From positions 1 through 26,835 of the forward strand of contig CAZHPN010000072.1 in NCBI GenBank assembly GCA_964534375.1: DNA of 26,835 bases, read 5' to 3'. Position 1 is the first letter of the stretch; every line of letters starts with the position of its first letter. Below are positions 80 through 26,329 of the stretch, in pieces. Source of the DNA: an uncultured bacterium. Its GTDB lineage: Bacteria; Lernaellota; Lernaellaia; Lernaellales; Lernaellaceae. Below the pieces are notes generated by a model that did no database searches, had not been told where the DNA came from, and saw nothing but the letters and a program-made list of their open reading frames with translations. The position numbers were made by a program, and so were the translations under genes.

Positions 80-538
80 ATGAAAGGCCGTAAATATTGG
101 TGGGTCGCGCTGGTTCTCTGCGCCGCGGCGCCGGCGCTGGGCATGGGCGACATGGGCTTGGGCGGCGACGAAAGGGCGCCGCGGCGGCCCGGCCGCAATT
201 TCACGGCGGTGGTGGTCGACCGTCTGATGCAGACGCTGGCGGTCAGCTACGTCAACTGCGAAGGCAAGACCACCATCAAGGGGTTTCTCGGCGAGATGCA
301 GATCGAGTTGTCGTTCGACAAGATCAAGAAGGTGGACTTCACGCCCGGCGACGGCGGCTTTGCCGATGGCCGCGTCCTCTTCCGCGACGGACAGAGCAAG
401 GCGATGCGCTTCAAAGATCTCACGCGCTGCTACGGCGAAAGCGACCTCGGCAAGATGATGGTTCGCCTCAAAGACCTGAAGGCGATCGAATTCGGCGAAC
501 CGCCCCCGATCGAGGAGACCCCGGCGCCGAGAAACTGA
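80..538 (+). CDS. Hypothetical secreted/periplasmic protein (152 aa)
   Basis: N-terminal signal peptide (MKGRKYWWVALVLCAAAPALG), globular beta-rich-looking body, co-oriented with the downstream operon. Confidence 0.75.
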   Translation: MKGRKYWWVALVLCAAAPALGMGDMGLGGDERAPRRPGRNFTAVVVDRLMQTLAVSYVNCEGKTTIKGFLGEMQIELSFDKIKKVDFTPGDGGFADGRVLFRDGQSKAMRFKDLTRCYGESDLGKMMVRLKDLKAIEFGEPPPIEETPAPRN

Positions 539-586
539 CGCGCGCGCCGCGCGGGACAACTACCGGTCACAAGGAATCGCGCTCCG

Positions 587-1864
587 ATGAAAAAATCCGC
601 CCCTCGTAAACGCCTATGGATCTGGCTGACCGTCGGCATCGCGCTCGCCGCGGCGATCGGCGCCGGCGTATACTATTTCACCGGCGAAAAACCGGCGGCG
701 ATTCAGCTCGACAAAGTGACGCGCGGCCAACTGTCGCAGATCGTCACCGCCTCCGGCCGCGCCAATCCGGCGATCAAAGTCGAAATCAGCGCCAATATCT
801 CGGCGGAAATCCGCAAACTCTACGTGAAGGAAGGCGATCGCGTCGCCAAAGACCAGCCGTTGGTCCTGCTCGACAGCCGGCGCTACGAGGCGAGCAACTC
901 GCAGTCGCTGGCCGCCATGCGGGCCGCGGCGGCGCAGGTCCGCCTCGCGGCGGCCAACGCCGATCTCGCCGCAAAAACGAGAGAGCGGCAAACCGAGTTA
1001 TTCAAACAGAATATGACGAGCAAGGAAGCGCTCGACACGGCCGAGACGCAGCATGACGTCGCGACCGCCACGCTGGAAGCGGCGCGCCACGCCGTGTCGC
1101 AGGCCGAGGCCGCGCTCAACGTCACGAGCGACGATTTGTCGAAGACGCTGATCCGCTCGCCGATGGACGGCGTCATCACGCGCCTGCCGAAACAGGAAGG
1201 TGAAATGGCCATCGGCAACATGTTCACACGCGACGTGATCATGGATGTTTCCAACCCGAACGAAATCGAAGCCACGGTCGACGTGGACGAGGCCGATGTC
1301 GCCTCGCTGAAAATCGGCAACGCGGCGACGGTCAAGATCGACGCCCTGCCGGGCAAAAAATTCGACGGCAAAGTCATCGAAATCGCCGGCAGCGCAAAAA
1401 TCAACCAACTCGGCACCCAGGAGCAGACCGTCAGCTTCGAGGTCAAGGTGCTGCTGTCCGGCGACACCGCCGCGATCCGCCCGGGCATGAGCGCCACCGC
1501 CGAGATTGTCACCGCGACCAAGGAAGACGTGCTGCAGGCGCCGATCCAGTGCGTCACGATGCGCGACCCCGAAGCGCTCGCAAAACTCGCCGACAAAAAG
1601 CACAAGAAAACCGGCGGCGACGCCGACCTTGGCATCAGCAGCGATATGAACAAGATGAAAGAAATGGTGTTCGCCGTCCGCGACGGCCGGGTGCAGCCGA
1701 TCTGGGTGAAGCCCGGCATCAGTTCCGACACTCACATCGAACTGACCGGCGACGGCCTCGCCGAAGGCCAGGAGTTGGCCTGCGGACCGTTCAAGACCGT
1801 GAATCGCGAGTTGAAGCCGGGAGACAGGGTAGAAGTGAAGGCGGAGAAGGGACCGGGGAAGTAG
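587..1864 (+). CDS. Efflux RND/ABC transporter periplasmic adaptor (MacA/HlyD-like membrane fusion protein)
   Basis: N-terminal TM anchor, lipoyl-like halves (LYVKEGDRVAKDQPL, IRSPMDGVI), alpha-helical hairpin, VDEADV and IRPGMSA motifs. Confidence 0.93.
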   Translation: MKKSAPRKRLWIWLTVGIALAAAIGAGVYYFTGEKPAAIQLDKVTRGQLSQIVTASGRANPAIKVEISANISAEIRKLYVKEGDRVAKDQPLVLLDSRRYEASNSQSLAAMRAAAAQVRLAAANADLAAKTRERQTELFKQNMTSKEALDTAETQHDVATATLEAARHAVSQAEAALNVTSDDLSKTLIRSPMDGVITRLPKQEGEMAIGNMFTRDVIMDVSNPNEIEATVDVDEADVASLKIGNAATVKIDALPGKKFDGKVIEIAGSAKINQLGTQEQTVSFEVKVLLSGDTAAIRPGMSATAEIVTATKEDVLQAPIQCVTMRDPEALAKLADKKHKKTGGDADLGISSDMNKMKEMVFAVRDGRVQPIWVKPGISSDTHIELTGDGLAEGQELACGPFKTVNRELKPGDRVEVKAEKGPGK

Positions 1865-1887
1865 TCAGTAGACAGTAGCCAGTAGTT
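1860..1887 (+). repeat. Heptamer tandem array A (AGTAGNN x4) overlapping the adaptor gene stop codon
   Basis: AGTAGTC AGTAGAC AGTAGCC AGTAGTT; TAG stop at 1862-1864 lies inside unit 1. Confidence 0.9.
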
Positions 1888-1968
1888 GCACGCGGACGCT
1901 GGTCGCAGAGGCAAAGATGAATAAGTCGTCAAATTTTTATTTTGGCGACCAATTCTCGCGGACAAATG

Positions 1969-1998
1969 CTGACTACTGACTACTGATTCCTGGCTACT
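1969..1998 (-). repeat. Heptamer tandem array B, inverted relative to A
   Basis: CTGACTA CTGACTA CTGATTC CTGGCTA CT; reverse complement matches array A. Confidence 0.88.
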
Positions 1999-2017
1999 CA
2001 CCCCTCAAGGAGCCAAC

Positions 2018-2383
2018 ATGGGCGAGAGGTCGAAGAGATTTCAGGACGTGCCCGTGTGGCAAAAAGCGCACACGTTTGTATTGCGCATATATGAAGTTTC
2101 GGCCGGGTTTCCCAAGACCGAAACATACGGGCTCACCTCTCAGCTTCGCCGATCCGCCGTCTCAATCGCCGCAAACATCGCCGAAGGGTTTCGCAAGCGG
2201 TCGCGGTTGGACAAGACGCGCTTCTACAATATTGCGCAAGGCTCACTCGAAGAAACACGTTATTATCTAATTCTCGCCCACGACTTGGGCTATTGCGATT
2301 CCGAAGACCTGCACGCGTTTCTCGACGAAGTGAGCAAATTGCTCGAAGCGTACTCACGAGCTGTCGCCAATGCGCACTCCTAA
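2018..2383 (+). CDS. Four helix bundle protein (23S rRNA intervening-sequence protein family, TIGR02436-like)
   Basis: Signature FQDVPVWQKAH...FPKTETYGLTSQLRRSAVSIAANIAEGF...FYNIAQGSLEETRYYLILAHDLGY; RBS AAGGAG at 2007-2012. Confidence 0.95.
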   Translation: MGERSKRFQDVPVWQKAHTFVLRIYEVSAGFPKTETYGLTSQLRRSAVSIAANIAEGFRKRSRLDKTRFYNIAQGSLEETRYYLILAHDLGYCDSEDLHAFLDEVSKLLEAYSRAVANAHS

Positions 2384-2444
2384 GCCCGTGGTCGCCGCGC
2401 CCAATCTGGCGGTCGCCATTCCCCCGCGCCGCCCGGCGCGCGTC

Positions 2445-2476
2445 CTACTGACTACTGCCTACTGCCTACTGTCTAC
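2445..2476 (-). repeat. Heptamer tandem array C (CTACTGN x4.5), direct to B and inverted to A
   Basis: CTACTGA CTACTGC CTACTGC CTACTGT CTAC. Confidence 0.9.
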
Positions 2477-2494
2477 GGCCCCCGGAGCCTTCCC

Positions 2495-3187
2495 GTGCCC
2501 CTGATTGAATGCCGCGATCTTCGCAAGAACTACCAAATGGGCGGCGAGACCGTGCACGCCCTGAAGGGCCTCAACCTGGCCATCGAAAAGGGCGAATACG
2601 TGGCGATCATGGGGCCGTCCGGCTCCGGCAAATCGACGCTGATGAACATGCTCGGCTGCCTCGATACGCCGTCCGCAGGCGCATACCTGCTCGATGGCGA
2701 GCGCGTCGATGAAATGACCGACGACGAACTTGCCGACATCCGCAACATGAAGATCGGCTTCGTTTTTCAAACGTTCAATTTGCTCGCGCGCGCCACCGCC
2801 CAGGCCAACGTCGAGTTGCCGCTGATTTACGCCGGCGTCCCGGCGCACGAGCGCCGCGTGCGCGCGCGGGACGCGCTGGCCAAGGTGGGACTGGCCGACC
2901 GCGTCGGGCACCGGCCGAATGAAATGTCGGGCGGCGAGCGCCAGCGGGTGGCGATGGCCCGCGCCTTTGTGACCGAGCCGCAATTGATTTTGGCCGACGA
3001 GCCGACAGGCAACCTCGACACGCACACCAGTTGGGAAATCATGGACTTGCTGAAGGACATTCACGCGCGCGGCAACACGATCATTCTGGTGACGCACGAG
3101 GATGACATCAGCCGCTACGCCCGGCGCATTGTGCGGCTGCGCGACGGCGTCGTGGAAACCGACGCGCCGAACGCCGACCCGAAATGA
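2495..3187 (+). CDS. ABC transporter ATP-binding protein (MacB/LolD family)
   Basis: Walker [10 protein letters not shown], signature MSGGERQR, Walker [13 protein letters not shown]-loop VTHE; GTG start with GGAG RBS. Confidence 0.96.
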
Positions 3188-4401
3188 CCCGCTGGCGCGA
3201 CATCTTCGTCATGGCGTTGTCCGCGTTGCGGGCGAATTCGATGCGTTCGCTCTTGACGACGCTGGGCATCGTCATCGGCATTACGACGATTATCGCGATC
3301 GTGTCGATTGTCGCCGGCCTCAACTACTCGTTCGCGAACCAGCTTTCGGCGATCGGCCAGGGCGTGCTGTACGTGCAGAAATTTCCCTGGGCGAGCAACG
3401 ATTGGCGCAAGTTCCGCGCGTATCCCGACATTTACTGGAAGGAATATTACGCCATCGCGGGCGAGGCGACGGGCGTCGCCGGCCTCAGCCCGCTGCTGAG
3501 CGACATGAAGACGATCAAGTTCGAGGACCGCAAGATCGAGCGCATTCAGGTGCTCGGCGTCAACGAGCAGTACGCGATCATCCGCAACGTGTTCCCCGAG
3601 ACGGGCCGCAATTTCACGGCGCTGGACGTGGCGCATGGCCGCTATGTTTGCATTCTGGGCTACGAGGTGGCGGAGCGGCTGTTCGGCCTGCGCGACCCGA
3701 TCGGCCGCCGCATTCGCATCGGCGAAAACTCGTTCGAGGTGATCGGCGTCATTTCCAAGCGCGGGGATTTCTTCGACCAGAACCTCGACCAGTTCGTCAT
3801 GCTGCCGCACACGGTTTTCGTGAAGACGATTCGCGCCGAGCGGCGCTATTTCTCGATCGGCGTCAAGGTCGCCGACACGACCCAAATCGGCGTGGTCAAA
3901 GAACAGATCCGCGGCATTCTGCGGCGCGTCCGCAAAGTGCCGTTCAACAAGCCCGACAATTTTTCGATCAACGAGGTCGATCTCTTGCGCGACCTGTACG
4001 AGAAATTGACCGGCGGCCTTTACGCGGCGATGTTCGCCGTCGCCGGCATTTCGCTGCTGGTCGGCGGCATCGGCATCATGAACATCATGCTGGTTTCCGT
4101 CACCGAACGGACGCGCGAAATCGGCGTGCGCAAAGCGCTCGGCGCGCGGCGGCGTTCGATTCTGCTGCAATTCCTGTTCGAAGCGATGCTGATTTCATCG
4201 GCCGGCGGCGTGCTCGGCGTGCTGCTCGGCGCTCTCGCGGCGCATTTGGTCGATCGCTTCACCTCGCTGCCCGCGCGGGTCGAAACGTGGAGCGCGGTGC
4301 TCGGCCTGGCGTTTTCCAGCGCCGTCGGGATTTTCTTCGGGCTGTTCCCGGCGCGCGCGGCGGCGAAGAAGGATCCGATTGAAGCTCTTCGTTACGAGTA
4401 G
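3184..4401 (+). CDS. ABC transporter permease (MacB-PCD/FtsX family)
   Basis: [53 protein letters not shown] overlap with the ATPase. Confidence 0.95.
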
Positions 4402-6974: not shown

Positions 6975-8336
6975 ATGAAGACTACCCCCCTAGTGTTGGC
7001 AATTTTACTTTGCCTCGTTCTCGCGGCGGCCGGCGTCGCGGGTTGCGCGACGAGCAGCAGCAGCAGCAGCAAGGGCGACGATGACGTCACCCCGGCGGAT
7101 GACGACGACAACGACAACGACGACGCCACCCCGGACGACGACGACGACGCCTCGCCTGACGACGACGACAACGACGACAATGACGCGTCCCCGGATGACG
7201 ACGACAACGACGACAACGACGCGAGCCCGGACGACGACGACGACGACGATGACGATTCCTCCCCCATCGAGATCATTCTTGACGACGGCAGCGCGAATAC
7301 CGGCGTCTATATGAGCGCCGCCAACACGGATCTGGTGCAGGGCTTCTTCCTCAAGCATCACCCGGCGAAACTTTTGTCCGCGCAGATTTACGTGTTCGGC
7401 ACGCAGGGCGCGACGAATCAGGTGGAGCTCGTCGTCTACTATTCCACGGCCACCAAGGGAACGGGGCCGGGGTCGACCACTCCGGTCTACTTATCCGCCC
7501 CGTTCACCGTGGCGACGACGGACGGCTGGAATGAGTTCGATCTGAGCGACGTCGTGGAACTGCAAACGCCCGTCGCAACCGGGGAACTCTACGTCGGCTT
7601 CGCCTACACGGTGGCCGGCACTGGCCCCTCGATCGGGCTCGATGAACAGGGTCTGCCGAACAACGACGCGTGGTATCAAGGCGGCGGCACGTGGTACAAC
7701 GTCGACGCGAACGCCGGTTACCCCGGCGTGCTGATGGTGCGCCCGACCGTCGAATACGAAGGCTCCGGCGACGACGACACGACCGACGATGACGACGACA
7801 ACGACGACGACGACGACTCGTCGCCGGCCGATGACGACGCCACCCCGGTGATCGGCTACGCCACGGGGGACACCATGCCGGACTTCACCGAGATGTCCAA
7901 CAGCGGCGCCAACGTCTCGTTGACCGATTTCAAGGGCAAAATCATTTTGCTCGACTCGTCGGCTATGTGGTGCCCGGGATGCAAAGCCGAGACACCGGAC
8001 CTCGAGACCGAATTCTACACGCCCTATCAAGACACCGGCCCCGGGTTGATGGTCCTGCAATTGCTCGGCCAAGACGTGTCGGGCAACACGCCGACCGTCG
8101 CCGAAATGCAATCGTGGGCGACGACCTACGGCCTGACCTTCCCCGTGCTCGCGGACGCGGATTGGAAGGTCGGCGGCCCGATCGGCGACAACCTGATTCC
8201 GTTCTATTGGGTTCTCGATTCGAACCTCAAGATCGTCGCAAAGTCGGATGACCCCGACACGGGCTGCGCGCAAAACCATTGCATGCTGTCATATTTCCTG
8301 CCGATCGTCCAAAAGCTTTTGGGCGTGGACGAATAG
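6975..8336 (+). CDS. Lipoprotein: Asp-rich linker, central putative beta-sandwich domain, Asp-rich linker, C-terminal TlpA/redoxin domain (WCPGC)
   Basis: RBS GAGGAG; lipobox VAGC; SPDDDDND repeats; PDFT...VSLTDFKGKIILLDSSAMWCPGC and IPFYWVLD of a thioredoxin-like redoxin. Confidence 0.88.
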   Translation: MKTTPLVLAILLCLVLAAAGVAGCATSSSSSSKGDDDVTPADDDDNDNDDATPDDDDDASPDDDDNDDNDASPDDDDNDDNDASPDDDDDDDDDSSPIEIILDDGSANTGVYMSAANTDLVQGFFLKHHPAKLLSAQIYVFGTQGATNQVELVVYYSTATKGTGPGSTTPVYLSAPFTVATTDGWNEFDLSDVVELQTPVATGELYVGFAYTVAGTGPSIGLDEQGLPNNDAWYQGGGTWYNVDANAGYPGVLMVRPTVEYEGSGDDDTTDDDDDNDDDDDSSPADDDATPVIGYATGDTMPDFTEMSNSGANVSLTDFKGKIILLDSSAMWCPGCKAETPDLETEFYTPYQDTGPGLMVLQLLGQDVSGNTPTVAEMQSWATTYGLTFPVLADADWKVGGPIGDNLIPFYWVLDSNLKIVAKSDDPDTGCAQNHCMLSYFLPIVQKLLGVDE

Positions 8337-8584: not shown

Positions 8585-9877
8585 ATGAAAAACACTCGAC
8601 TGGTCCTGGCATTTTTGCTTTTCGTCGTGATGGCGGCCGCCGTCGTCGCCGGTTGCGCGACGAGCAGCAGCAGCAGCAGTAAGGCCGATGACGACGTGAC
8701 TCCGTCGGACGACGACGACAACGACAACGACGACGACGCCTCGCCGGTCGACGACGATGCGAGCCCGGACGACGACGACAACGACAACGACGACAACGAC
8801 GATACGAGCCCGGTCGACGACGACAACGACGACAACGACGACAACGACGACGCGTCCCCCGCGGCCAGTTGCAATCTGGTGGCCCAGGACGTGGTCGGAA
8901 CCTGCAGCGTCGTGCTGAAAGACCTGCAGGGGAATCAGATCAATCAGTCGGGCGTGGACGACTGGTGCGGCTTGTGCGACGACTTGTTCGGCGGGGGGAC
9001 GACCGTGAGTTCCCCATTCTGGAACTGCATGAACGCCTGTGCGGTCGGCCAATCTTGCAATGCGGCGTGCTTCAACGGTTGCACCGCGCCGCCCGATCCC
9101 GGCGGGACGGGCTGCAATCACACGGTCTACGGGATCTATTCGTGCGGCGTCGTCTTCTCGTTCCTCGACACCTACTACATGGTGCCGGAAATGGACGAGG
9201 CGCTCGACTGCCCGAATGCGACGTCGATGCCGTGGCCCTGCTACCAGACGTGCGTGAACAACAACCCCTGCTCCAACCCGCCGACGAACGCTCAGGCCAA
9301 TGCGTTGATCGCCTGCATGAACAAGTGCCCGGCGGCCGACGATGACGACGACGACAACGACGACACGTCGCCGGCCGACGACGACGCCACTCCGATCGTC
9401 GGGTACGCCACCGGCGACACGATGCCGAACTTCATCGAGATGTCCAACAGCGGCGTCAACGTCTCGCTGAGCGATTACAAGGGCAAGGTCATTTTGCTTG
9501 ACTCGTCCGCCATGTGGTGCCCCGTCTGCAAAGCCGAGACGCCGGATCTGCAGTCGGAATTCTACGGGCCGTATCAAAACACCGGACCAGGTTTGATGGT
9601 GCTTCAACTGATCGGCGAGGACGTGGCCGGCAATACGCCGACCGTCGCCGAACTGGAAAACTGGGCGACGACTTACGGCTTGACGTTCCCGATCCTCGCC
9701 GATCCGGATTGGCGCGTGGGCGGCCCGATCGGCAACAACGAGATTCCGTTCTACTGGGTTCTCGACACGAACCTGAAGATTGTCGCGAAGTCGAGCGACG
9801 GCGGCAACGATTATCCGCTGTCGTACTTCCTGCCCATCGTGCAAGAGTTGCTGGGCGTGGACGACGACTCGCAATAA
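8585..9877 (+). CDS. Paralogous lipoprotein: Asp-rich linker, Cys-rich central domain, Asp-rich linker, TlpA/redoxin domain (WCPVC)
   Basis: RBS GAGGAG; lipobox VAGC; N- and C-terminal parts closely similar to 6975..8336, central part unrelated and Cys-rich. Confidence 0.88.
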   Translation: MKNTRLVLAFLLFVVMAAAVVAGCATSSSSSSKADDDVTPSDDDDNDNDDDASPVDDDASPDDDDNDNDDNDDTSPVDDDNDDNDDNDDASPAASCNLVAQDVVGTCSVVLKDLQGNQINQSGVDDWCGLCDDLFGGGTTVSSPFWNCMNACAVGQSCNAACFNGCTAPPDPGGTGCNHTVYGIYSCGVVFSFLDTYYMVPEMDEALDCPNATSMPWPCYQTCVNNNPCSNPPTNAQANALIACMNKCPAADDDDDDNDDTSPADDDATPIVGYATGDTMPNFIEMSNSGVNVSLSDYKGKVILLDSSAMWCPVCKAETPDLQSEFYGPYQNTGPGLMVLQLIGEDVAGNTPTVAELENWATTYGLTFPILADPDWRVGGPIGNNEIPFYWVLDTNLKIVAKSSDGGNDYPLSYFLPIVQELLGVDDDSQ

Positions 9878-10093: not shown

Positions 10094-10852
10094 ATGTGGC
10101 GTTTATATTGCGCGGTGTTGGCCGTGGCGGCGGCGTCGGCGACGGCCTTGATTCTGGCGGCTTGCGGCGCGGGCTATCAGAACAGCGCCAGCGGCGGCGG
10201 CGGCGGTTCGTGCATCAATTGCGACACCACGTCCGACTGCAGCCAGGCGATGGGACAGGGCTGGGCCTGCGAGGACGGCTGCTGCGAGCAAGTCTCGTCG
10301 TGCCAAGCGGTCTTTGACGAGGCATACCAAGATTGTTCGCTGACGGAGACCGATGAAAATGGAAATCCCATACCAGAATCCGAGGTCGTGCAAGAGTGCC
10401 AGAACAATGCCGACGACAACGGCCTCAGCGGCCCGTATGCCGCGTGCATCATTAATTATTGGGGTGATTGCGACGCCATGCAAACGTGTCTCGAAAATGT
10501 GCCGCCGAGCGACGATGACGACGACAACGATGACGACAATGACAATGACGACGACAACGACACCGCGGCGCCGACCTGCCAGAGCGTGTACGACCAGTTG
10601 TACACCGTGTGCAGCTTCCAGTTCCACGACGGCAGCGGCAATCCGATTCCGGAATCGACGATCGTCGCCGATTGCGAAGCCGGCAATTTGTGCTACGAGC
10701 TTACCGGCAGCATCGCCGAGTGCGTCACCAACAACTGGGCCAATTGCACGAACATCGAGGCCTGCATCGCCGGACACCTTCCCTGCGGCGACGACGACGA
10801 TAACGACGACAACGACGACAATGACGACAACGACGTGTCGCCGGGCGCCTAA
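10094..10852 (+). CDS. Cys-rich, Asp-rich lipoprotein with two internal repeats
   Basis: RBS AGGAGG; lipobox LAAC; two copies of C-x10-C-x5-D-x2-GNPIPES-x5-C separated by a DDDND tract. Confidence 0.8.
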   Translation: MWRLYCAVLAVAAASATALILAACGAGYQNSASGGGGGSCINCDTTSDCSQAMGQGWACEDGCCEQVSSCQAVFDEAYQDCSLTETDENGNPIPESEVVQECQNNADDNGLSGPYAACIINYWGDCDAMQTCLENVPPSDDDDDNDDDNDNDDDNDTAAPTCQSVYDQLYTVCSFQFHDGSGNPIPESTIVADCEAGNLCYELTGSIAECVTNNWANCTNIEACIAGHLPCGDDDDNDDNDDNDDNDVSPGA

Positions 10853-16774: not shown

Positions 16775-16939
16775 AACAGTGAACAGCGAGCACTGAGCAG
16801 TGAGCAGTGAACAGTTGTGCGCGCAAGTCAGTTGGGCTTCGCGCGGACCTGTTGCTGGAACATTCGGGCAAATTCTTGGACGGGAGTACGCTTCCACCAC
16901 TGTTCACTGTTCCCTGCTCGCTGCTCCCTGTTCACTGTT
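16775..16939. repeat. Inverted pair of six-unit heptamer arrays with an 81-nt spacer
   Basis: Left 16775-16816 AACAGTG AACAGCG AGCACTG AGCAGTG AGCAGTG AACAGTT; right 16898-16939 CACTGTT CACTGTT CCCTGCT CGCTGCT CCCTGTT CACTGTT; 36/42 complementary; contains the hypB TGA. Confidence 0.9.
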
Positions 16940-17600
16940 CGCCGCGTTTCCGGCGCAGGCGGTCTTTGATCCAGTCGACAAACAGCGGGACGCCTGCGCC
17001 CGTGCGGGCCGAAAGGCGCAGGATTTCGATCCGCGGATTGACCGCGCGGATGTTGCGCTCCATCAAATCCACGTCGGCGCCGAGCGCGATGGTCGCGTCG
17101 ATTTTATTGACGACCGCGAGCGTCGCTTCCTGGAACAGCAGCGGATACTTGAGCGGCTTGTCTTCGCCTTCGGCGACCGAGAGCACGGCAATTTTCGCGT
17201 CTTCGCCGAGGTCTTCCTCGGCCGGGCAGACGAGATTGCCGACGTTCTCGATGACCACCAGGTCGAGGCGGTCGAGCGGCAGGTTGTCGAACGCCTTGCG
17301 CGCCGAGGGCTGCGCGATGTGGCAACTGGTGACGCCGGTGCAGATCGCCTCGACCGCGATGCCCAGCTTCTCCAGCCGGTCGGCGTCGTTGCGCGTCGCC
17401 GCGTCGGCCTCGATGACGGCCAGGCGCAGATCTTTCGCGAGCAGCGGCAGCGCGCGTTCGAGCAGCGTCGTCTTGCCCGAGCCCGGCGAGCTGATGAGGT
17501 TGACGGCCAAAATGGCGCGGCGCGCGAGATCGGCGCGGATGCCGTCCGCGATTTGCTGATTTTCGCTGCGGGGATCTTTCGCAACAACGATCGTCGTCAT
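16932..17600 (-). CDS. hypB: Hydrogenase nickel incorporation GTPase
   Basis: SSPGSGKTTLL, CH motif (TSCH), ENVGNLVCPA, EGEDKPLKYP, NKID. Confidence 0.95.
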   Translation of the reverse strand: MTTIVVAKDPRSENQQIADGIRADLARRAILAVNLISSPGSGKTTLLERALPLLAKDLRLAVIEADAATRNDADRLEKLGIAVEAICTGVTSCHIAQPSARKAFDNLPLDRLDLVVIENVGNLVCPAEEDLGEDAKIAVLSVAEGEDKPLKYPLLFQEATLAVVNKIDATIALGADVDLMERNIRAVNPRIEILRLSARTGAGVPLFVDWIKDRLRRKRGEQ

Positions 17601-17941
17601 TCTTCCACCTCGATGGCCTGGAGCAGGACCTCCTTGCCTTTGATCATTTCCATCGGCCGGCCGCACTGCGGACAAAACATGATCGGCTCGGGCAGGTCGA
17701 AATCGTGCCGACACGTCGCGCAGCGCGCCACCATGCTTTGCAATTCGACGGCCAATTTCGCGCCGGCGAGCTGCGTGTCCGCCGACTGCATCTCGAAAAA
17801 CATCTCCATGGCGTCGGGCACCAGCCCCTGGCAGACGCCGACGAGCACACGCACTTCCTTCACTTTGCCGGTCGCGCCGTTCGTGCGCAACGCTGCCAGC
17901 GAGGCGTCGACGATGGCTTGGACGATGGCTCCCTCGTGCAT
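17597..17941 (-). CDS. hypA: Hydrogenase maturation nickel metallochaperone
   Basis: N-terminal MHE, two CxxC (CATC, CPQC), GKEV end. Confidence 0.93.
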   Translation of the reverse strand: MHEGAIVQAIVDASLAALRTNGATGKVKEVRVLVGVCQGLVPDAMEMFFEMQSADTQLAGAKLAVELQSMVARCATCRHDFDLPEPIMFCPQCGRPMEMIKGKEVLLQAIEVEE

Positions 17942-18954
17942 CAACAAATCCTTGGCAGCCCGGCCTCGATCGGCATTTCGATGACGCGGCGGGCGCCGAT
18001 CGCCGTCTCCATCACCACACGGCCGCGGCGCGGCGCTTTCTCGACGCGGCCGATGATCGCGGCCTCGCGGCCGTAAATGTGTTTCTGCATCGCAGCCAGC
18101 GCCGCCGCCGCCGCGTCCGGCGCGACGAACAGCAGCGCTTTGCCCTCGTTCGCCAGCGGCAGCGGATCGAGGCCAAGCACCTCGATGAACGACGCGACCG
18201 CCGCGCGAATCGGCAGTTTCTCTTCGACGAGCACGATCTGCAGGCCGGTGTCCTGCGCAAACTCGTTGAGCGTCGCGGCGAGGCCGCCGCGCGTTGGATC
18301 CCGCAACGCGTGCAGCGCGCCGCCGACTGCCGCCGCCACCTCGGCGACCAATTCGTGCAGCGGCGCGCAATCGCTGGCCAGCGTGCCGTCGAAGCCGAGT
18401 TTTTCGCGCGCGTTCAAGATCGCCGCGCCGTGATCGCCGATCGTGCCGCTGACGAGCAACACATCGCCCTCGCGGATCAATTCCGGCCCGACCGGCCCGA
18501 AGGCGCGCGTGCCGAAGCCCGTGGTGTTGAGGAACAGGCCGTCGACCGTGCCCTTCTCGACGACCTTCGTGTCGCCGGTCACGATCCGCACGCCGGTTTC
18601 GCGGCAGACGCGGCCGATCGACGCCATGATCGTGCGCAGTTCGTCGAACGCGAAACCTTCTTCGATGATCAGCCCGAGCGACATGTATTGCGGGCAGGCG
18701 CCCATCATCGCCACGTCGTTGATCGTGCCGACCACCGCCAGCTTGCCGATGTCGCCGCCCGGGAAAAACCGCGGCGTGATCGTGAAGCTGTCCGTCGAAA
18801 CCACCACCGGCGGCAGCAAATCCGGCAGCACCGCGGCGTCGAGCGTCACCGCATGGCCGTCTTTGCCCGACAGCGCCGGCAGAATGATCTGGTCCAACAG
18901 GTCTTGCGTCAGGCGCCCGCCGAAGCCGTGCGCCAGGCGAATCAACTCACTCAT
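17941..18954 (-). CDS. hypE: Hydrogenase maturation carbamoyl dehydratase
   Basis: LAHGFGG, FFPGGDIGKLAV, TGDTKVV, RDPTRGG, C-terminal PRIC. Confidence 0.96.
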   Translation of the reverse strand: MSELIRLAHGFGGRLTQDLLDQIILPALSGKDGHAVTLDAAVLPDLLPPVVVSTDSFTITPRFFPGGDIGKLAVVGTINDVAMMGACPQYMSLGLIIEEGFAFDELRTIMASIGRVCRETGVRIVTGDTKVVEKGTVDGLFLNTTGFGTRAFGPVGPELIREGDVLLVSGTIGDHGAAILNAREKLGFDGTLASDCAPLHELVAEVAAAVGGALHALRDPTRGGLAATLNEFAQDTGLQIVLVEEKLPIRAAVASFIEVLGLDPLPLANEGKALLFVAPDAAAAALAAMQKHIYGREAAIIGRVEKAPRRGRVVMETAIGARRVIEMPIEAGLPRIC

Positions 18955-20044
18955 TATCGACCTCCGGGTACAAAAAATGCGCGCGGCACGCGCCCTCGCC
19001 GCCCACCATGCACGGCCCCTTCGGCCGCTCCGGCGTGCAGGCCTTCGCGAACAAGCCGCATTCCTCGGGGCGTTTGCGGCCGAGCATGATCAAGTGGCAT
19101 TGGCAGCCGGGCATGACGTCTTCCACGCCGGTCGCCTCGGGCACGCCGAACACCGCGGTCGCGTCGAACCGGCGATACGGCTCGCGCAGCAGCAGTGCGG
19201 TGTCCGGCAGCACGCCGATGCCGCGCCAGGCGCCGTCGGCGAGTTCGAAAACCTCAAAGAGAATTTCCTGCGCGCGTTTGTTGCCCTCCGGCCGCACGAC
19301 GCGGCGGTAGCAGTTGGCCACCGCAGGTTCGCCGCGTTGGCGCTGCCGCGCGATCGAGAGCAGCCCGGCAAGAATTTCTTCCGGTTCGAAACCGGCGACC
19401 GCCGCCGGCTGGCGGTATTTCTGCGCGAGAAAATCGTACGCGACCTGGCCCGTGATCACGCACGCGTGGCCGGGCAGCAGATAGCCGCCGATCTGGCCGT
19501 CGTCGAGTTTCGCCAGCGCCTCGACCGCGGTCGGCACGTAACGGTGGCAGGGATAAATCGAGAAATTTTCCGGCAGGTCTTCCCGCAGCATCGCGGCCAC
19601 CGGCGCCGCCGTCGTCTCGAAGCCGATGCTGAAAAAAACGACGCGGCGTTCCGGCTCGCGCCGGGCGAGCGCGGCCGGCTCGTGCAGATCGTAAATCACG
19701 CGGATGTCGGCGCCCTCGCCGCGCGCGTCGAGCAATGAGCCCGCGGCGGTCGGCGTCCGCGCGATGTCGCCGTACGCACAGACGATCGGCCGGCTCGCGT
19801 GCCTGGCGAGCGCGATGGCCGTGACGATCGCCGCGGCCGGCGTGATGCAGACCGGGCAGCCCGGCCCGGCGACGAGGCGCACGTTTGCCGGCAGCAGTTG
19901 CCGCAGCGCCCAGCGCCCGATCTCGTGCTCGTGCGTGCCGCAGACGTGCATGACCGTCAGCGGCGGCTGCCCGTCGGCCTCGCGGCGCAGGGCGGCGGCG
20001 AGATCGCGGACCGTTTGCTTGCGGTGAGAACTAGTGTCGGTCAT
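18947..20044 (-). CDS. hypD: Hydrogenase formation protein
   Basis: CGTH, GPGCPVC, GFETT, PGH, C-terminal Cys cluster ending PCMVGGEGAC. Confidence 0.96.
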   Translation of the reverse strand: MTDTSSHRKQTVRDLAAALRREADGQPPLTVMHVCGTHEHEIGRWALRQLLPANVRLVAGPGCPVCITPAAAIVTAIALARHASRPIVCAYGDIARTPTAAGSLLDARGEGADIRVIYDLHEPAALARREPERRVVFFSIGFETTAAPVAAMLREDLPENFSIYPCHRYVPTAVEALAKLDDGQIGGYLLPGHACVITGQVAYDFLAQKYRQPAAVAGFEPEEILAGLLSIARQRQRGEPAVANCYRRVVRPEGNKRAQEILFEVFELADGAWRGIGVLPDTALLLREPYRRFDATAVFGVPEATGVEDVMPGCQCHLIMLGRKRPEECGLFAKACTPERPKGPCMVGGEGACRAHFLYPEVDNE

Positions 20045-20294
20045 GCGGGTCGTCGGCCGGGGCGACGAGATCGTTGAGTCGCGCGAAATCGTCGAAAGCG
20101 TCGAGAATCGTCTGCGCCTCGGCGTCGGCAAGCACCTCGATCGCCGCGCCGGCATGCACCAGCACGAAATCGCCGACCTTCGCCTCCGGGGTCAAGATCA
20201 GGCCGACCGTCAGCGTCGCGCCGCCCGCGTCCACGACGCCCGACAGGCCGTCTGGCGCGAGCGAAAGCAATTTGAATGGTCTGGCCAAACACAT
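20031..20294 (-). CDS. hypC: Hydrogenase assembly chaperone
   Basis: MCLARP N-terminus, VGDFVLVHAG; GGAGG RBS. Confidence 0.94.
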   Translation of the reverse strand: MCLARPFKLLSLAPDGLSGVVDAGGATLTVGLILTPEAKVGDFVLVHAGAAIEVLADAEAQTILDAFDDFARLNDLVAPADDPHDRH

Positions 20295-20340
20295 GACGTC
20301 CTCCAGGGGGAATCGGGCGCGGCCCGGCGAAAGCCACCGG

Positions 20341-20364
20341 GTCGAGCGACAAGCAGCGCCCTAC
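20341..20364 (-). repeat. Single degenerate GTAG REP-like copy just after the hypF stop
   Basis: Minus strand GTAGGGCGCTGCTTGTCGCTCGAC resembles GTAGGGGCGCTGCTTGCTGCGCCC at 4398. Confidence 0.55.
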
Positions 20365-20365
20365 A

Positions 20366-21589
20366 TTACCGGGCGACTTCGGCGAGGACAAGGCCGATCT
20401 GGCCCAACGCGATGGCCTGATCGCCCGGCGGCAGCTTCTGCGGTTTGCGATATTCGAGGCCGGCGTCGGCCAGCGCCGCGGCGAGCAGCCGGTCGAAGAG
20501 CCGGTTGAGGAACACGCCGCCCGACGCCAACACGACCCGCGCGCCGGTTTCGCCGGCGAGCCGCGCCGCCGCCGCCGCGACCGCCGCCGCCGCCGCGTGG
20601 TGAAACGCGTACGCCAGCCGCGGGGCGTCCGTCGGAGCGCGCCGCGCCGTCGCCGGCAAAGCGGGGAAGTCGATCACGTGCGGCTTGGTCTCGGAGACGG
20701 CGAACGGCCAATCACCGGGCTGCACGTCGTAGGCGTTGGCCTCTGCCAATTTCTGCAATTCGATCGCGCCCTGCGCCTCGAAATCGACGACGACGCGCAC
20801 GCCCAGCAGCGCCGAAACCGCGTCGAACCACCGGCCCAGCGCCGTCGAACGGCCGATCGCGACGTTCTTATTCAGCCCGGCGCGGAATAATTCGAAACCT
20901 CCCCCTTTGGAAGAGGCCAAATCGAAATCTCTCCCTTTGTGAGAGGTCGCCTCGCCCTGCGAGGCGGGTAAGGGCTCCCTCACCCCAACCCTCGCCCCAA
21001 GGGAGAGGGAGTTGACCAGCGGAACCCGGCGCGAGGCGAGCCACTGCCCGGCCTCGGCCTCCGAAACGCCCCGTTCCAGCAGCAAGGCAAGCGCAATGCG
21101 CCACGGCGCGCGCACCGCCGCATCGCCGCCCGGCAGGGGCACGGGCGCGAAATGCGCGGCCCGCGCGAAGCCCTGCGCCAGCGAGCCGGTGAACATCTCG
21201 CCGCCCCAGGCGACGCCGTCGTCGCCGTAACCGGTGCCGTCGAAGGCGAGCCCGATGACTTGTTCTTCGTACAGACCGAATTCGAGGCACGCTGCCGCAA
21301 CGTGCGCGCGATGATGCTGCACCTGAAACAACTTGCAGCCGCGTTCGGCCGCGACGCGTTCGGCGAGCGCCGTCGAGAAATAGCCCGGATGCCGATCGCA
21401 GACGATTGCCGTCGGCGCGATTTTCTCCAGCGCAGTTTCCAGCGCGTCCTGTTTTTCCGGCGAAGCGAGATCGCCGATCTCGTCGAGCACGTCGGCTTCG
21501 GCGCCGATGGCGACCGCCGGGCGGCATTTCAAATCGCCGCCCAGGGCGGCGAGGGAAAACGGCAGGGAATGAGGCAATTGAATTTTCAT
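20366..21589 (-). CDS. hypF: Short HypF carbamoyltransferase (Kae1-like C-terminal part only) with an internal repeat-derived insertion
   Basis: CDRHPGY, VQHHRAH, FDGTGYG, WGGE, GRWFDAV, SGGVFLN, PPGDQAIALGQ; no acylphosphatase, Zn-finger or YrdC region; GAGGA RBS upstream. Confidence 0.88.
   Translation of the reverse strand: MKIQLPHSLPFSLAALGGDLKCRPAVAIGAEADVLDEIGDLASPEKQDALETALEKIAPTAIVCDRHPGYFSTALAERVAAERGCKLFQVQHHRAHVAAACLEFGLYEEQVIGLAFDGTGYGDDGVAWGGEMFTGSLAQGFARAAHFAPVPLPGGDAAVRAPWRIALALLLERGVSEAEAGQWLASRRVPLVNSLSLGARVGVREPLPASQGEATSHKGRDFDLASSKGGGFELFRAGLNKNVAIGRSTALGRWFDAVSALLGVRVVVDFEAQGAIELQKLAEANAYDVQPGDWPFAVSETKPHVIDFPALPATARRAPTDAPRLAYAFHHAAAAAVAAAAARLAGETGARVVLASGGVFLNRLFDRLLAAALADAGLEYRKPQKLPPGDQAIALGQIGLVLAEVAR
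20892..21011. repeat. Palindromic repeat remnants inside hypF
   Basis: 30-bp-period duplication TCGAAACCTCCCCCTTTGGAAGAGG / TCGAAATCTCTCCCTTTGTGAGAGG (20892-20946) plus CCCTCACCCCAACCCTCGCCCCAAGGGAGAGGGAG (20977-21011). Confidence 0.7.
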
Positions 21590-21710
21590 GCAGCGACAAA
21601 TCCTCGGTGAACGGCGTCCCGGCCCCAAGTTGAGAAAGGCTTTTTACGGCAAAAAGGGACGGGAGTCCAGGCGAAAAAACAATCGCGTGGACGGCGCCAC
21701 GTCGTCGAAA

Positions 21711-21834
21711 CCATAGCGCCAACGGCGCGAACTAACCCAGCGAGGGTCGAAGGCCCTCGAATCCGGCCCTCGAATCCGGCCCTCGAATCCGGCCGACGAT
21801 CTCGTCGGCCGTAATCCACAGCGCCAACGGTGCG
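21711..21834. repeat. Composite intergenic repeat: 19-bp direct repeats enclosing a 13-bp x3 tandem repeat and hairpins
   Basis: CCATAGCGCCAACGGCGCG (21711-21729) and CCACAGCGCCAACGGTGCG (21816-21834); GGCCCTCGAATCC x3 (21752-21790); GGCCGACGA-TC-TCGTCGGCC (21791-21810). Confidence 0.8.
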
Positions 21835-21840
21835 TTTCGC

Positions 21841-22428
21841 TTACCTGACGCAACGCACGTTGGTCGCGTCCACGACGTAGCCTCCGTAGACGGAACCGTA
21901 GCTGAAATCTACTCCCCAAACCAAGTCGGCGGAGCCCGTGACCGCGGAGGACGACCAATACAAGTCGGGGCATCGGCCGCCAATCTGCGGCCAAAAGCAT
22001 CCGAATGGTCCTGGGCCGCCAGCGGGGCAATTGTCCGCGCTGCAAGCGTCGTTTTCGCAAGATTGATTCAAACACTGATCCGTGACGCCGCATGATCCGC
22101 CGGTGGCTGTGTCGGGACAGCCGCGAATGAGACTGCGAAGCGCGTCGATGTCCGGCAAGCGCCAGTCGTGAAAGCCAGCCAACGTCAAGCCGGCGCAATA
22201 GTTTTTGGCATCCGGGGGGTAATACGCCGTCGCCGGAGCATCCGCCTGCCACATGTGGCCGGTGCTCGGATCGGTCCAAACGGCAGCGTCATCGTCGTCA
22301 TCGGGCGAAACAACATCGTTGTCGTCGTCGGCCACAGATCGCTGGGCAGGCGGCACAGTACCGCTGCCGGCGCAAGCGGCCACTGCAAGCAGCGCCAGAA
22401 GCAAAAATAGACAATTTCGAGGTTTCAT
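21841..22428 (-). CDS. DUF1566 (Lcl C-terminal, C-type-lectin-like fold) domain lipoprotein
   Basis: Lipobox VAAC, DDDND linker, WTDPSTGHMWQ, YCAGLTLAGFHDWRLP, YWSSS, terminal VRCVR. Confidence 0.88.
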   Translation of the reverse strand: MKPRNCLFLLLALLAVAACAGSGTVPPAQRSVADDDNDVVSPDDDDDAAVWTDPSTGHMWQADAPATAYYPPDAKNYCAGLTLAGFHDWRLPDIDALRSLIRGCPDTATGGSCGVTDQCLNQSCENDACSADNCPAGGPGPFGCFWPQIGGRCPDLYWSSSAVTGSADLVWGVDFSYGSVYGGYVVDATNVRCVR

Positions 22429-22484
22429 TGGTCAGCCCCACGATTCGTAACCGGATTGGTCGTTGACAATCGCTTGCTGAAGTT

Positions 22485-22513
22485 ATTGTAGCCGCGTGAA
22501 GTTGGCGCCGCAA
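22485..22513 (-). promoter_or_regulatory. Putative sigma70 promoter of the DUF1566 gene
   Basis: Minus strand TTGCGG-N17-TACAAT, 56 nt upstream of ATG 22428. Confidence 0.5.
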
Positions 22514-22684
22514 GACGACTCCAAACGGTACGATGCGCCGTTTATCATCCATAGCGCCGACTGCGCGGCACGTGCGGGGCGACAGAAGAAAACCGCCGGC
22601 GCCGGGCGCGAAAAATCCGCGCACGTTCGGGCCGCCTTTGCGCCCTCTGCGGATTCCCCTGCGGCCGCTGCGTTTGATGAGGGC

Positions 22685-23065
22685 TTAGTTCTTCTTCAGC
22701 TTCAGCTTCAGCGTCGTGAGCAGCGTATTCGGGTCGATCGGCTTTTGGAAGATGCCGGCGAGGCCCAACTCGACCCAATTGACGTTTTGCGCCAGCGAAT
22801 CGCCGATCGAACTGAGCATATAGACCGGGATGTCGGCGCGTTCGAGCCGCAAGGCGCGCACGAAATTCCGGCCGGCGTCGATCTCTTCCATCATCATGTC
22901 GACGATGGCCAGATCGGGATGCGCTTCCTTAAATTTCTTCAAGCCGAGTTCGGCCGTCGGCGCTTCTTCGACAAAATAGCCGCCGTTTTCCAGGATCGTC
23001 CGCAACACCATCAGAACGTCCGGGTCGTCATCGACGCAAAGAATCACGAATTTGCCGTCTTTCAT
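22685..23065 (-). CDS. Single-domain response regulator (receiver only)
   Basis: ILCVDDD, PDLAIVDMMM (phosphoacceptor Asp), MLSS, QKP. Confidence 0.92.
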   Translation of the reverse strand: MKDGKFVILCVDDDPDVLMVLRTILENGGYFVEEAPTAELGLKKFKEAHPDLAIVDMMMEEIDAGRNFVRALRLERADIPVYMLSSIGDSLAQNVNWVELGLAGIFQKPIDPNTLLTTLKLKLKKN

Positions 23066-23091
23066 CGCTGCACCTGTGCCAGATTGATGAT

Positions 23092-23580
23092 TTACTTTCC
23101 GGCGACGTCTCCCGGCGCCGGGCCGAACGACCCTGCGCGCAACGCCGCGGCCAACCACTTTTCGGCCGCGGCCAGATTCGCCGCCGCTTTTTCCGTCAAC
23201 GTTTCAACGAACATCTCGAACGAATAACCGCGAATCGCCAGCAGATACCCGGCGACATTCGACCCGAACGCGTCGTGCGCCAGACTGAGCACCGCCGCCG
23301 GCGCGACGCTGTGCGACGAAAAGCTCTGCGGGCTTTCCGGCGCCAGCGCGCGAAATGCGAACGGCTCCGGTCCGGTCGTCGCCGCATCCGCGAAGATCAC
23401 GGTGCGATGCCGCGCCGCCGTCTCCGCGTCTTCCACTCCGAGCTGATACCCCGAATCGACGGTCACGCCGTCCAGGTTCAGCTTCTCGATCGCCGCCGCC
23501 AGCGCCGGGCCGAGCCCGTCGTCCTGCCGCGCCGGATTGCCGTAGCCGATCAGCAGCAGCGGGACCAAGCCGCCGATCAA
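23092..23580 (-). CDS. hoxW: Hydrogenase maturation protease
   Basis: LIGYGNPARQDDGLG, IFADA, SSH; TTG start overlaps the hoxH stop. Confidence 0.88.
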   Translation of the reverse strand: MIGGLVPLLLIGYGNPARQDDGLGPALAAAIEKLNLDGVTVDSGYQLGVEDAETAARHRTVIFADAATTGPEPFAFRALAPESPQSFSSHSVAPAAVLSLAHDAFGSNVAGYLLAIRGYSFEMFVETLTEKAAANLAAAEKWLAAALRAGSFGPAPGDVAGK

Positions 23581-25016
23581 CCCCGCGCCATCCGGTCGAC
23601 GAGATGGCCTTCCTCGTCAATCAGTTCGACTTCCAACGGCATGTGCCCCACCGCGTGCGTCGCGCACGACAAACACGGATCGTAGGCGCGAATCGCGACC
23701 TCGATGCGGTTGAGCAGGCCCTCGGTGAGCTTCTTGCCGTCGAGATGATCCATCGCCACGCGATGCACGGCGCGGTTCATCGGCTCGTTGTTGTGCGTCG
23801 TCGAGACAATCAGGTTGGCCTGAACCACCTGGTCGTCTTTGTTGACGCGATACGCGTGGATCAACGTGCCGCGCGGGGCCTCGATGATGCCGACGCCGTA
23901 CTCGCGGCGCTTGCCGGTCACCACCAGGTCGTTGCCCTGCAGGTCTTTGTCGTTCAGCAGCTCCTTGATCTTTTCGATCGAGTGCAGCAGCTCGATGATG
24001 CGCGACCAGTGATACGCCATCGTCAGGTTCACCGTCTTGCCGAGCGTCTTCACGTATTCCTTGCGCTCGGCTTCGGCTTCGGGCGTATCGATGAAATCGC
24101 ACGTGTTCAGGCGCGCCAGCGGGCCGACGCGATACCAGCCCTTTTCGGGGCCGAGCGTCTTGATGAACGGGAACTTCATATACGACCAGTTCCGCACTTC
24201 CTCGGCGAGATACTGCACGTACTGCTGGTTGTCGACGTGGTCGAAAATCTTCTCGCCCTTGTCGGTGACCGCGCGCAAGCCGCCGTCGTAAAGATCGAGC
24301 GCGCCGTCCTTGCGGACGATCGACATGTGGTTCGAATCGAACGCGCCGAACGGCCCGAGCGTGTCGACATTCTTCAGCGTGATGTCTTTGACGATCGCCA
24401 TCGCGCCGCGCGACCAGGTGATCATCTGGTCGAGGTCTTTGAGCAGGAAATCGCGCTCGGCGAGGCTCAGGTTTTTGTTGATGCCGCCGGGGACCGCGCC
24501 CGTGCCGTGAATCTTCTTTCCGGCCGTGCGCAGGATGATCTCCTGGCCGTACTTGCGCATCAACACCGCCTGCGTCGCCAACTCCGGATACTTGAAGATC
24601 ACGCCGATGACGTTGCGGATCTTCGGGTCGGCGTCGAAGCCGAACAGCAAATCCGGCGACGCGAGGTGGAAGAAGTGCAGCGCGTGCGACTGGAACATCT
24701 GGCCGTAGTGCATCAGCCGCCGCATCTTTTCCGCCGTCGGCGTCAGCTTGTCCGCGCCGACGATCACGTCGGACGCCTTGGCCGCCGCGAGGTGGTGGCT
24801 GACCGGGCAAATGCCGCACAGACGCTGCACCAGCACGGGCATTTCCCAATACGGCCGGCCTTGGACGAAGCGTTCGAAGCCGCGGAATTCCACGACATGG
24901 AAACGCGTCCGCTTGATCCGCCCGTCGTCGTCGATGAGCAGCGTGACCTTGCCGTGCCCCTCGACGCGGGTGATGGGTTCGATGACAACGCGATTCAAAC
25001 CGTTTGCAGTCTCCAT
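23577..25016 (-). CDS. hoxH: NAD-reducing [NiFe]-hydrogenase large subunit (group 3d)
   Basis: EPITRVEGHGK, L1 RLCGICPVSH, EAPRGTLIH, L2 DPCLSCATH plus cleavable C-terminal extension. Confidence 0.96.
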   Translation of the reverse strand: METANGLNRVVIEPITRVEGHGKVTLLIDDDGRIKRTRFHVVEFRGFERFVQGRPYWEMPVLVQRLCGICPVSHHLAAAKASDVIVGADKLTPTAEKMRRLMHYGQMFQSHALHFFHLASPDLLFGFDADPKIRNVIGVIFKYPELATQAVLMRKYGQEIILRTAGKKIHGTGAVPGGINKNLSLAERDFLLKDLDQMITWSRGAMAIVKDITLKNVDTLGPFGAFDSNHMSIVRKDGALDLYDGGLRAVTDKGEKIFDHVDNQQYVQYLAEEVRNWSYMKFPFIKTLGPEKGWYRVGPLARLNTCDFIDTPEAEAERKEYVKTLGKTVNLTMAYHWSRIIELLHSIEKIKELLNDKDLQGNDLVVTGKRREYGVGIIEAPRGTLIHAYRVNKDDQVVQANLIVSTTHNNEPMNRAVHRVAMDHLDGKKLTEGLLNRIEVAIRAYDPCLSCATHAVGHMPLEVELIDEEGHLVDRMARG

Positions 25017-25034
25017 TGGCGCTCCCTCGAAGGC

Positions 25035-25580: not shown

Positions 25581-25592
25581 CGTTCTACCTCA

Positions 25593-26318: not shown

Positions 26319-26329
26319 CTTGCAGCCCT

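Follow-up and report, generated by a model that had tools for sequence, protein, structure and literature searches.

In the 26,835-nt stretch of bacterial DNA analysed here (the window, in whose coordinates all positions are given), a small gene for a four-helix-bundle protein, framed by tandem heptamer arrays, stands between the adaptor and ATPase genes of an ABC exporter operon, which raises the question of what this element is and how it came to lie there. The comparisons described below show that the insert (approximately 1860..2476; hereafter the cassette) is specific to its lineage, that its arm–gene–arm build is typical of the protein family, and that the repeat unit is tied to the protein subfamily. 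On balance, we find it somewhat more probable than otherwise that the insert is a horizontally exchanged cassette of the type found in rRNA intervening sequences (IVSs), settled at a gene junction, whose Avd-like pentameric protein binds the cognate repeat. Such a cassette would consist of a purine-rich heptamer arm, the four-helix-bundle gene, and a complementary pyrimidine-rich arm.

The insert, its arms and its protein

In a comparison of the 18 best of 30 loci, the window's own among them, none of the other 17 adaptor–ATPase junctions carried the insert. The two genes were −14 to 21 nt apart in these genomes versus 630 nt here, and the sole exception, a frameshifted copy with a spacing of 61 nt, was also insert-free. 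Six of the seven same-family genomes searched are among those with an empty junction; in the remaining one, no orthologue was found. An earlier note on this DNA had claimed that the insert splits genes that are normally adjacent and is more AT-rich than its flanks, and both claims were borne out. The GC content of the insert was 55%, against 63% in the adaptor gene and 64% in both the ATPase gene and the genome, with values of 49% in the part from array A to array B, 54% in the gene, and 71% in the 3′ part; GC at third codon positions (GC3) was 0.64 in the four-helix-bundle gene and 0.83–0.84 in the neighbouring genes. Sequence comparison thus marks the insert as a foreign, lineage-specific cassette. 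Placed in the sense orientation, it separates a stop codon from the ribosome-binding site (RBS) that follows and extends from about the adaptor stop to about 2476–2483, beyond which an apparent remnant of the ancestral adaptor–ATPase spacer carries the ATPase RBS (2484..2494, forward strand) and resembles, by eye, the short spacers of loci L010–L012. No target duplication was visible at this site, for which the empty counterparts come from other genera only (adaptors 49–59% identical within the family); because there was no same-genus genome among the relatives searched, the insert ends are not fixed more finely. The filled and empty sites of Ca. Brocadia and Okeania, described below, are so heavily reworked that neither ends nor a target motif can be read there.

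The three arrays are located and oriented as the earlier note had described. Array A, the purine-rich left arm (1860..1886, forward strand), comprises approximately four units (3.9) of CAGTAGN; its first unit spans the TAG stop codon (1862–1864) of the gene for the MacA-like periplasmic adaptor (587..1864, forward strand), and its pairing reaches back to the GGGG at 1855–1858. Array B, an extra right arm that is pyrimidine-rich on the forward strand (1969..2000, with its end placed at 1998/2000; reverse strand; 4.3 units), begins 82 nt past array A in the opposite orientation, and array C, the right arm at the far side of the gene (2445..2476, with ends placed at 2444/5 and 2476/80; reverse strand), has approximately five units (5.3) oriented like those of B. 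A and C can form a stem of approximately 30 bp with a mismatch at about every seventh pair. The three-unit pattern AGTAGNNAGTAGNNAGTAG matched eight times in the window, always within arrays A, B, or C, and never in 100 shuffles. Between A and B lies an AT-rich loop (1887..1968, forward strand) with a CACRCRGA..CRCAGAG motif (1889–1910) and a 20-codon mini-ORF (1917–1979); the host genome holds no second copy of this loop, and no sibling of it was found there beyond approximately 20 nt beside the arm. After array B, the Shine–Dalgarno sequence AAGGAG (2007..2012, forward strand) stands 5 nt upstream of the ATG of the four-helix-bundle gene (PF05635/TIGR02436; 2018..2383, forward strand), which is intact and encodes 121 amino acids, and a GC-rich spacer (2384..2444) leads from its stop to array C. 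By eye, AAGGAG resembles a worn CAGGAGT unit. The window copy of the cassette is worn: of the arm units that directly adjoined the gene, nothing is left but the RBS and the final codons. Array A may have supplied the stop codon of the adaptor gene (1855–1864). The operon continues with a gene for a MacB/LolD-type ABC ATPase (2495..3187, forward strand), and profile matches identify the neighbours as genes for a MacA-like adaptor, an ABC ATPase, and a MacB/FtsX permease; among these transporter genes, no adjoining reverse transcriptase (RT) or template repeat was found. A promoter and terminator scan gave results at chance level.

The encoded protein matched PF05635 (E = 2e-37; 127.9 bits against a cut-off of 33.8) and TIGR02436 (E = 1e-35; 122.3 bits against 24), and scored below the cut-off with the profiles of Avd of diversity-generating retroelements (DGRs) (NF033474, 26.2 against 80 bits; PF22296, 23.8 against 40). 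Its predicted structure contains four helices (pLDDT 91.7) and has a fold like those of BT_0352, Xcc0516 (2GSC; TM 0.86), and DGR Avd (4DWL and 8UB7; TM 0.75–0.78), with 10–12% identity to Avd. Structures 2GSC and 2RLD contain five chains each, and by analogy with them, the window protein is probably an Avd-like homopentamer. The gene is under purifying selection.

Repeat word and protein subfamily among relatives

The best 80 of 411 relatives, with 61–71% identity, come from many phyla and mostly occupy different sites, their 147 neighbouring ORFs falling into 124 families. Arrays were present upstream of the gene in 67, downstream in 74, and on both sides in 64 of these 80 loci, against a background density elsewhere in the same loci of 0.09 arrays per 330 nt. 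The supposition that PF05635 genes go with inverted heptamer arms is therefore strongly supported, both by these 64 relatives and by all five such genes in the host genome (see below). The gene mostly follows a gene on the same strand, from whose stop the left arm is no more than 30 nt away in 47 of the 54 cases measured; in the usual form, the left arm finishes in the ATG, and the right arm codes for the last residues and the stop. Arms have a median length of 4.6–4.7 units, a figure biased by the detection threshold. Rfam gave no match at positions 1700–2700 of the window, and none in the 20 of these 80 relative loci that were scanned.

The repeat unit itself follows the protein subfamily. 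The unit CAG.A.. (CAG-n-A-k-w) was found in 71 of the 80 scored rows of this similarity-selected set, from which two second genes of other clades had been moved out, versus 1 of 55 other family members; other clades carry other repeat words (FastTree, 97 columns, with many forks open). In the clade containing L180, L183, L186, L189, and L205, the arms are built of 8-mers, not 7-mers, and to judge from these sequences the repeat period also follows the protein clade. Positions 2, 3, and 5 of the left arm are 96–98% fixed, and at the variable positions 1, 4, 6, and 7, the agreement between the left and right arms of a locus exceeded that in all 2000 shuffles (with kinship uncorrected and the register anchored on CAG.A). 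This conservation extends over a distance at which four-fold sites are saturated, their median identity being 0.30 (1540 pairs) and that of the window with 55 relatives 0.23. The association also held between genomes. Among 150 Desulfobacterota genomes (seed genome excluded; members defined by E < 1e-35 and positives by at least 10 overlapping pattern matches), the unit was carried by all six with a close subfamily member versus 17 of 144 without one. All seven same-family genomes had 0–2 pattern matches versus 225 in the host, and none of their PF05635 loci open to inspection carries this unit; a phylum search centred on genome G029, which covered two genomes, gave no match. This correspondence between subfamily and unit across genomes makes plausible the earlier proposal that the protein is a trans-acting factor.

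The cassettes are not static. At one orthologous intergenic site in Ca. Brocadia, the 12 genomes with both flanks (within L200–L212) comprise one intact cassette, one frameshifted cassette, two different internal deletions, one lone right arm, one cassette of another clade, two sites with another heptamer family, and four that are cassette-free. Cassettes are gained, lost, exchanged for one another, and worn down at a single site. The Okeania cassette sits inside a duplicated host locus and is frequently broken; local duplication of its ends gives it additional arms, and extra arms arising by local duplication were also seen at loci L078, L136, and L251. Pseudogenes are frequent among cassette copies. 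At L078, an internally deleted copy stands in tandem ahead of an intact one, giving the same layout as in the window. We think it fairly probable that array B arose in a comparable way, as a leftover or accidental extra arm of a second, deleted copy, and not as part of a switch. The mini-ORF in the A–B loop weakly resembles the joined ends of a deleted subfamily gene (position-bound joint p = 0.024, post hoc; tested separately, p = 0.04 for the N-terminal and p = 0.38 for the C-terminal part), and none of 35 other loops reached its score (0/35, with an uninformative positive control). These values are suggestive of a relic gene in the loop.

Arrays in the host genome and competing explanations

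The host genome contains 731 period-7 arrays, compared with 18–78 for periods 5, 8, 10, 11, and 13 and, under other settings, 205 for period 9. Neighbouring arrays less than 300 nt apart form 211 pairs, 146 of which point inward (purine arm first), 9 outward, and 56 in the same direction; at same-strand stop codons, 202 arrays lie on the purine strand versus 20 on the pyrimidine strand, as counted with a rough gene caller of our own. Many arrays keep register with the stop codon ahead of them, which can often be read as part of the first unit, and the array itself may supply the stop codon of the upstream gene. All five full-length PF05635 genes of the host, one of which has an internal stop and three of which are intact genes outside the window (contigs C6, C14, and C291), lie by eye inside inward arms, each with its own unit, and each of these units is also a common array family in the genome. 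The unit of the present cassette was found at 64 host sites, against 3 for the control. In 46 other host arrays of its family, G3 and A5 are each 97% fixed, and positions 4 and 7 are loose, a pattern not expected if a slippage repeat had simply decayed uniformly. The commonest unit family in the genome is of the AACAGTG type; it brackets a PF05635 gene on contig C291 and also forms a gene-less inward pair in the window (16775–16815 and 16898–16940). At host loci L006–L008 (contigs C98, C320, and C71), 9-mer repeats precede three four-helix-bundle genes that are longer and match weakly. The three matches to GxxExxY/PF13366 (L230–L232, on contigs C16, C166, and C43) are, by eye, flanked by purine-first and pyrimidine-last tandem repeats of longer period, and arm packaging may extend to this second small protein family.

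With regard to the function of the protein, we consider it reasonably likely, by analogy with Avd and the trp RNA-binding attenuation protein (TRAP), that the pentamer binds single-stranded nucleic acid made up of its cognate repeat, at approximately one unit per subunit over 4–5 units. The repeat word is specific to the subfamily, has fixed and loose positions, and is kept in gene-less arrays, and ring binding is therefore the simplest account of it; such binding would maintain the fixed unit positions both in the cassette's own arms and in many gene-less arrays. TRAP is a ring protein that binds (G/U)AG repeats with one unit per subunit; the likeness lies only in the proposed logic, in which a ring protein reads tandem units made up of fixed and spacer positions, the folds being unrelated. 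The cassette would have no enzyme of its own for movement. Its spread by horizontal transfer and recombination with host help, for which resident arrays of the same unit would serve as landing or seeding sites, is a possibility that we hold only tentatively. Family genes were found in 46 of 72,556 plasmid records, mostly cyanobacterial.

Several observations weigh against reading the insert as an exchanged cassette with a repeat-binding protein. Binding, RNase III cutting, and movement are inferred, not observed. Outside this subfamily, the unit tracks the tree weakly, being shared by 27% of the closest 11 pairs and approximately 3% of distant pairs. The register anchored on CAG.A inflates the conservation of that unit, and the fixed AG.A(G) also forms a Shine–Dalgarno sequence, and the right arm often codes for the C-terminus; these roles could account for some of the conservation. 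Among the Desulfobacterota, the 17 unit-bearing genomes without the subfamily divide into 12 (of 51) that have a different family member and 5 (of 93) in which none was found, and in G141, one of the six positives, nearly all matches lie at the cassette. Genome G013 has 31 matches with no member found. These genome counts include non-independent kin, and the assemblies are incomplete and break at repeats. No family gene occurred in 50,697 phage records. The gene's GC3 correlates with the GC content of the host (r = 0.85), and to judge from this composition, transfer is slow or confined to like hosts. Within the host genome, 86 of the 146 inward pairs carry unlike units and 60 like ones, so pairing is not universal, and the arrays of this unit are mostly single (65 of 79 sites, with a looser pattern). 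A general origin of the gene-less hairpins by decay of cassettes was considered and rejected here: 70 of 71 inward loops, searched on both strands, hold no gene relic, the single match being a known intact gene, and most host arrays are therefore not simply dead cassettes. Gene-less hairpins derived from decayed cassettes are seen in Brocadia and at L078 and are not general in the host.

An alternative that we regard as unlikely is an active repeat-spreading element, in which the protein, alone or with a borrowed host RT or repair polymerase, would copy or write cognate arrays into gene junctions, the gene-less hairpins being its non-autonomous partners. The strict polarity of the arrays at stop codons, the match of five resident genes to five resident array families, and the existence of same-family genomes lacking both arrays and gene would fit such an element, as would the role of Avd as an RT cofactor. 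It would also accommodate a composite repeat of approximately 200 nt around an AATGGCG hairpin, with a shared loop and flanks, that occurs in some 30 copies (36 rows; e.g., C74:25623, C136:6372, and C188:3079) beside mostly unrelated genes. Gene-less heptamer hairpins can therefore be copied as units; no PF05635 gene with the AATGGCG unit was found in the host assembly. Against this reading, profile searches of the cassette protein revealed no recombinase, nuclease, or RT domain, the host genome has a single, partial RVT_1 match, on another contig, and among the 120 longer homologues listed there was no recurrent fusion to such domains, only sporadic singletons with assorted neighbours. Moreover, no target duplication was seen, and the loops of this unit's hairpins are unrelated to one another. 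The self-contained mobility envisaged in the earlier note finds no support in the same evidence.

A second and rather improbable alternative is that the arrays are ordinary simple-sequence repeats (SSRs) kept for RNA structure after stop codons, with the gene as a passenger and the unit retained through RBS and coding roles and co-inheritance. Polarity, a four-unit bias, and inverted pairs have been published for Xanthomonas repeats with no reference to any protein (PMC4692102), host arrays are more than 100 times as numerous as the genes, some genomes have arrays but not the subfamily, and the many pseudogenes also suit a passenger. Against this, matching inward arms stand on both sides of only 7 of 4286 ordinary called genes (the caller misses the PF05635 genes themselves) versus, by eye, five of five PF05635 genes, the gene-less arrays share their fixed positions with arms in other phyla, and the unit is retained over a saturated synonymous distance. 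In addition, the Xanthomonas table itself (PMC4692102, supplement file 2, row 27) lists a GGGAATC array lying across the start of XCC0516, which encodes the pentamer of structure 2GSC.

Folding bears on the role of the stem in the operon and on the model of the earlier note. The duplex energies are similar (A:B, −43.1 kcal/mol; A:C, −45.5 kcal/mol), and in the full transcript the expected pairs are 21.8 for A:C versus 1.1 for A:B, the A:C stem being present in both the minimum free energy and centroid structures (z = −2.8). On the operon mRNA, this stem of approximately 30 bp would join the adaptor stop to the ATPase RBS and may, as in rRNA IVSs, be a substrate for RNase III, a suggestion that we offer with less than even confidence. 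Both cistrons would remain intact if the cut fell between the stop and the following RBS, and the insert would cost little because the stem places the one beside the other in a cuttable form; the host genome has an RNase III gene. The earlier note saw instead a self-contained element in which the three arrays switch between an A:B hairpin and an A:C loop-out, or in which recombination between B and C deletes the gene. Both duplexes can indeed form, and when A:B forms first in transcription, the RBS is unpaired with a probability of 0.88 versus 0.49 in the full fold. As a designed feature, alternative pairing is not supported: A:C dominates at equilibrium, and a layout with one purine-rich arm ahead and pyrimidine-rich arms on both sides of the gene was present at 2 of 81 loci, the second being the deleted tandem copy at L078. 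Neither deletion between B and C nor looping out left a trace in the data: the deletions found in relatives fall inside the gene and not arm to arm, and we judge the three-array switch very improbable. Contigs from two DNA and two RNA runs over 500–3400 contained no joint skipping the insert, at a depth of approximately 2–4 and with no piece spanning the insert, which makes them uninformative; two RNA-library contigs (1636–1958 and 1622–1911) cross the adaptor stop and array A without a break, with DNA carry-over possible.

The idea that the hairpins and cassette were moved by a HUH (Y1) transposase that is associated with repetitive extragenic palindromic (REP) sequences and encoded at another genomic location, the four-helix-bundle gene being its cargo, would suit the REP-like placement at gene ends and the seven Y1 transposase matches in the host, but none of the seven is bracketed by a matching inverted heptamer pair and four have no array within 600 nt, and it can hardly be upheld. 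In REP/REPIN–RAYT systems and bacterial miniature inverted-repeat transposable elements, dispersed intergenic hairpins form a family matching a single resident gene flanked by like repeats. In contrast, the cassette gene is not a HUH transposase, the repeats are tandem heptamers and not palindromic REPs, and no target rule is apparent.

Elsewhere in the window are three predicted lipoprotein-like ORFs with long Asp/Asn-rich linkers (6993–8336, 8615–9877, and 10115–10852), the first two having N- and C-terminal parts in common. A minus-strand cluster at 16932–26818 resembles a NiFe-hydrogenase operon with maturation genes, as judged by eye from its motifs.

Known systems and wider meaning

The closest published counterpart is the IVS in helix 45 of the 23S rRNA of Coxiella burnetii, an element with heptamers directly ahead of its S23p ORF and a stem that RNase III cuts (Warrier et al. 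2016, PMC4990558); in that paper, the heptamers are treated as a local feature and the S23p protein as probably not made. In both elements, a terminal stem (28 bp in Coxiella and approximately 30 bp here) encloses a PF05635 ORF in its loop, tandem heptamers directly precede this ORF, copy number varies, and the ORF can be internally deleted. The present cassette differs in lying between protein genes, having a good RBS, and carrying a third arm, and RNase III cutting is observed there and predicted here. The earlier comparison with an IVS therefore holds for the build, which matches that of ORF-bearing rRNA IVSs, and not for the location, which is between the adaptor and ATPase genes and not inside an rRNA gene (the host 23S gene is not in the assembly). 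By this analogy, the cassette would work like an rRNA IVS placed in an operon, without being an IVS by location.

The arrays themselves have a counterpart in the intergenic heptamer SSRs of Xanthomonas and Nostoc, which were explained by G-quadruplexes (Rehm et al. 2015, PMC4692102). These likewise consist of 7-nt units in approximately four copies, with the purine- or G-rich strand right after stop codons, convergent inverted pairs, and fixed and loose positions, and the host genome displays the same period-7 excess, purine strand after stops, and inverted pairs. CAGTAGN units, unlike those repeats, have no G-tract and cannot form quadruplexes. In the main text of PMC4692102, "four helix" occurs 0 times, and no link to a protein is drawn there. 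On the protein side, PF05635 and Avd are described as homologous in a review (PMC10053308), and Avd itself is a pentameric barrel in which all five protomers read flipped-out RNA bases between protomers, according to the preprint of Handa et al. (10.1101/2023.10.23.563531). The four-helix fold is common to both, whereas the sequence identity is low, the Avd profile scores are below the cut-off, and the cassette has no RT, template, or variable repeat. In a literature search limited to open-licence PMC and bioRxiv, a link in print between the gene and heptamers was found only for the Coxiella IVS. IVS ORFs and polar intergenic heptamer arrays have been published separately, and the link between gene and repeat beyond Coxiella appears, within the reach of that search, to be the new part.

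The three-array arrangement of this locus adds little to this picture. What the locus does is to join two puzzles, a large protein family whose function is not known and an excess of 7-base intergenic repeats, and the host genome, with five proteins and five repeat words, offers a directly testable match of protein to word. If the link holds, the rRNA IVSs with S23p ORFs would be an offshoot of an element common at operon junctions, and the RNA binding of Avd in DGRs would have a simpler relative. A broader proposal, which is speculative and which we consider improbable as a whole, is that four-helix-bundle proteins are sequence-specific ring readers, each subfamily coded to a repeat word and period, and that their cassettes are transposase-free mobile elements that seed hundreds of cognate arrays at gene junctions. 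If true, such a class of ring readers would explain much of the unexplained heptamer excess of bacteria, and the ORF-bearing rRNA IVSs would be a special case of it.

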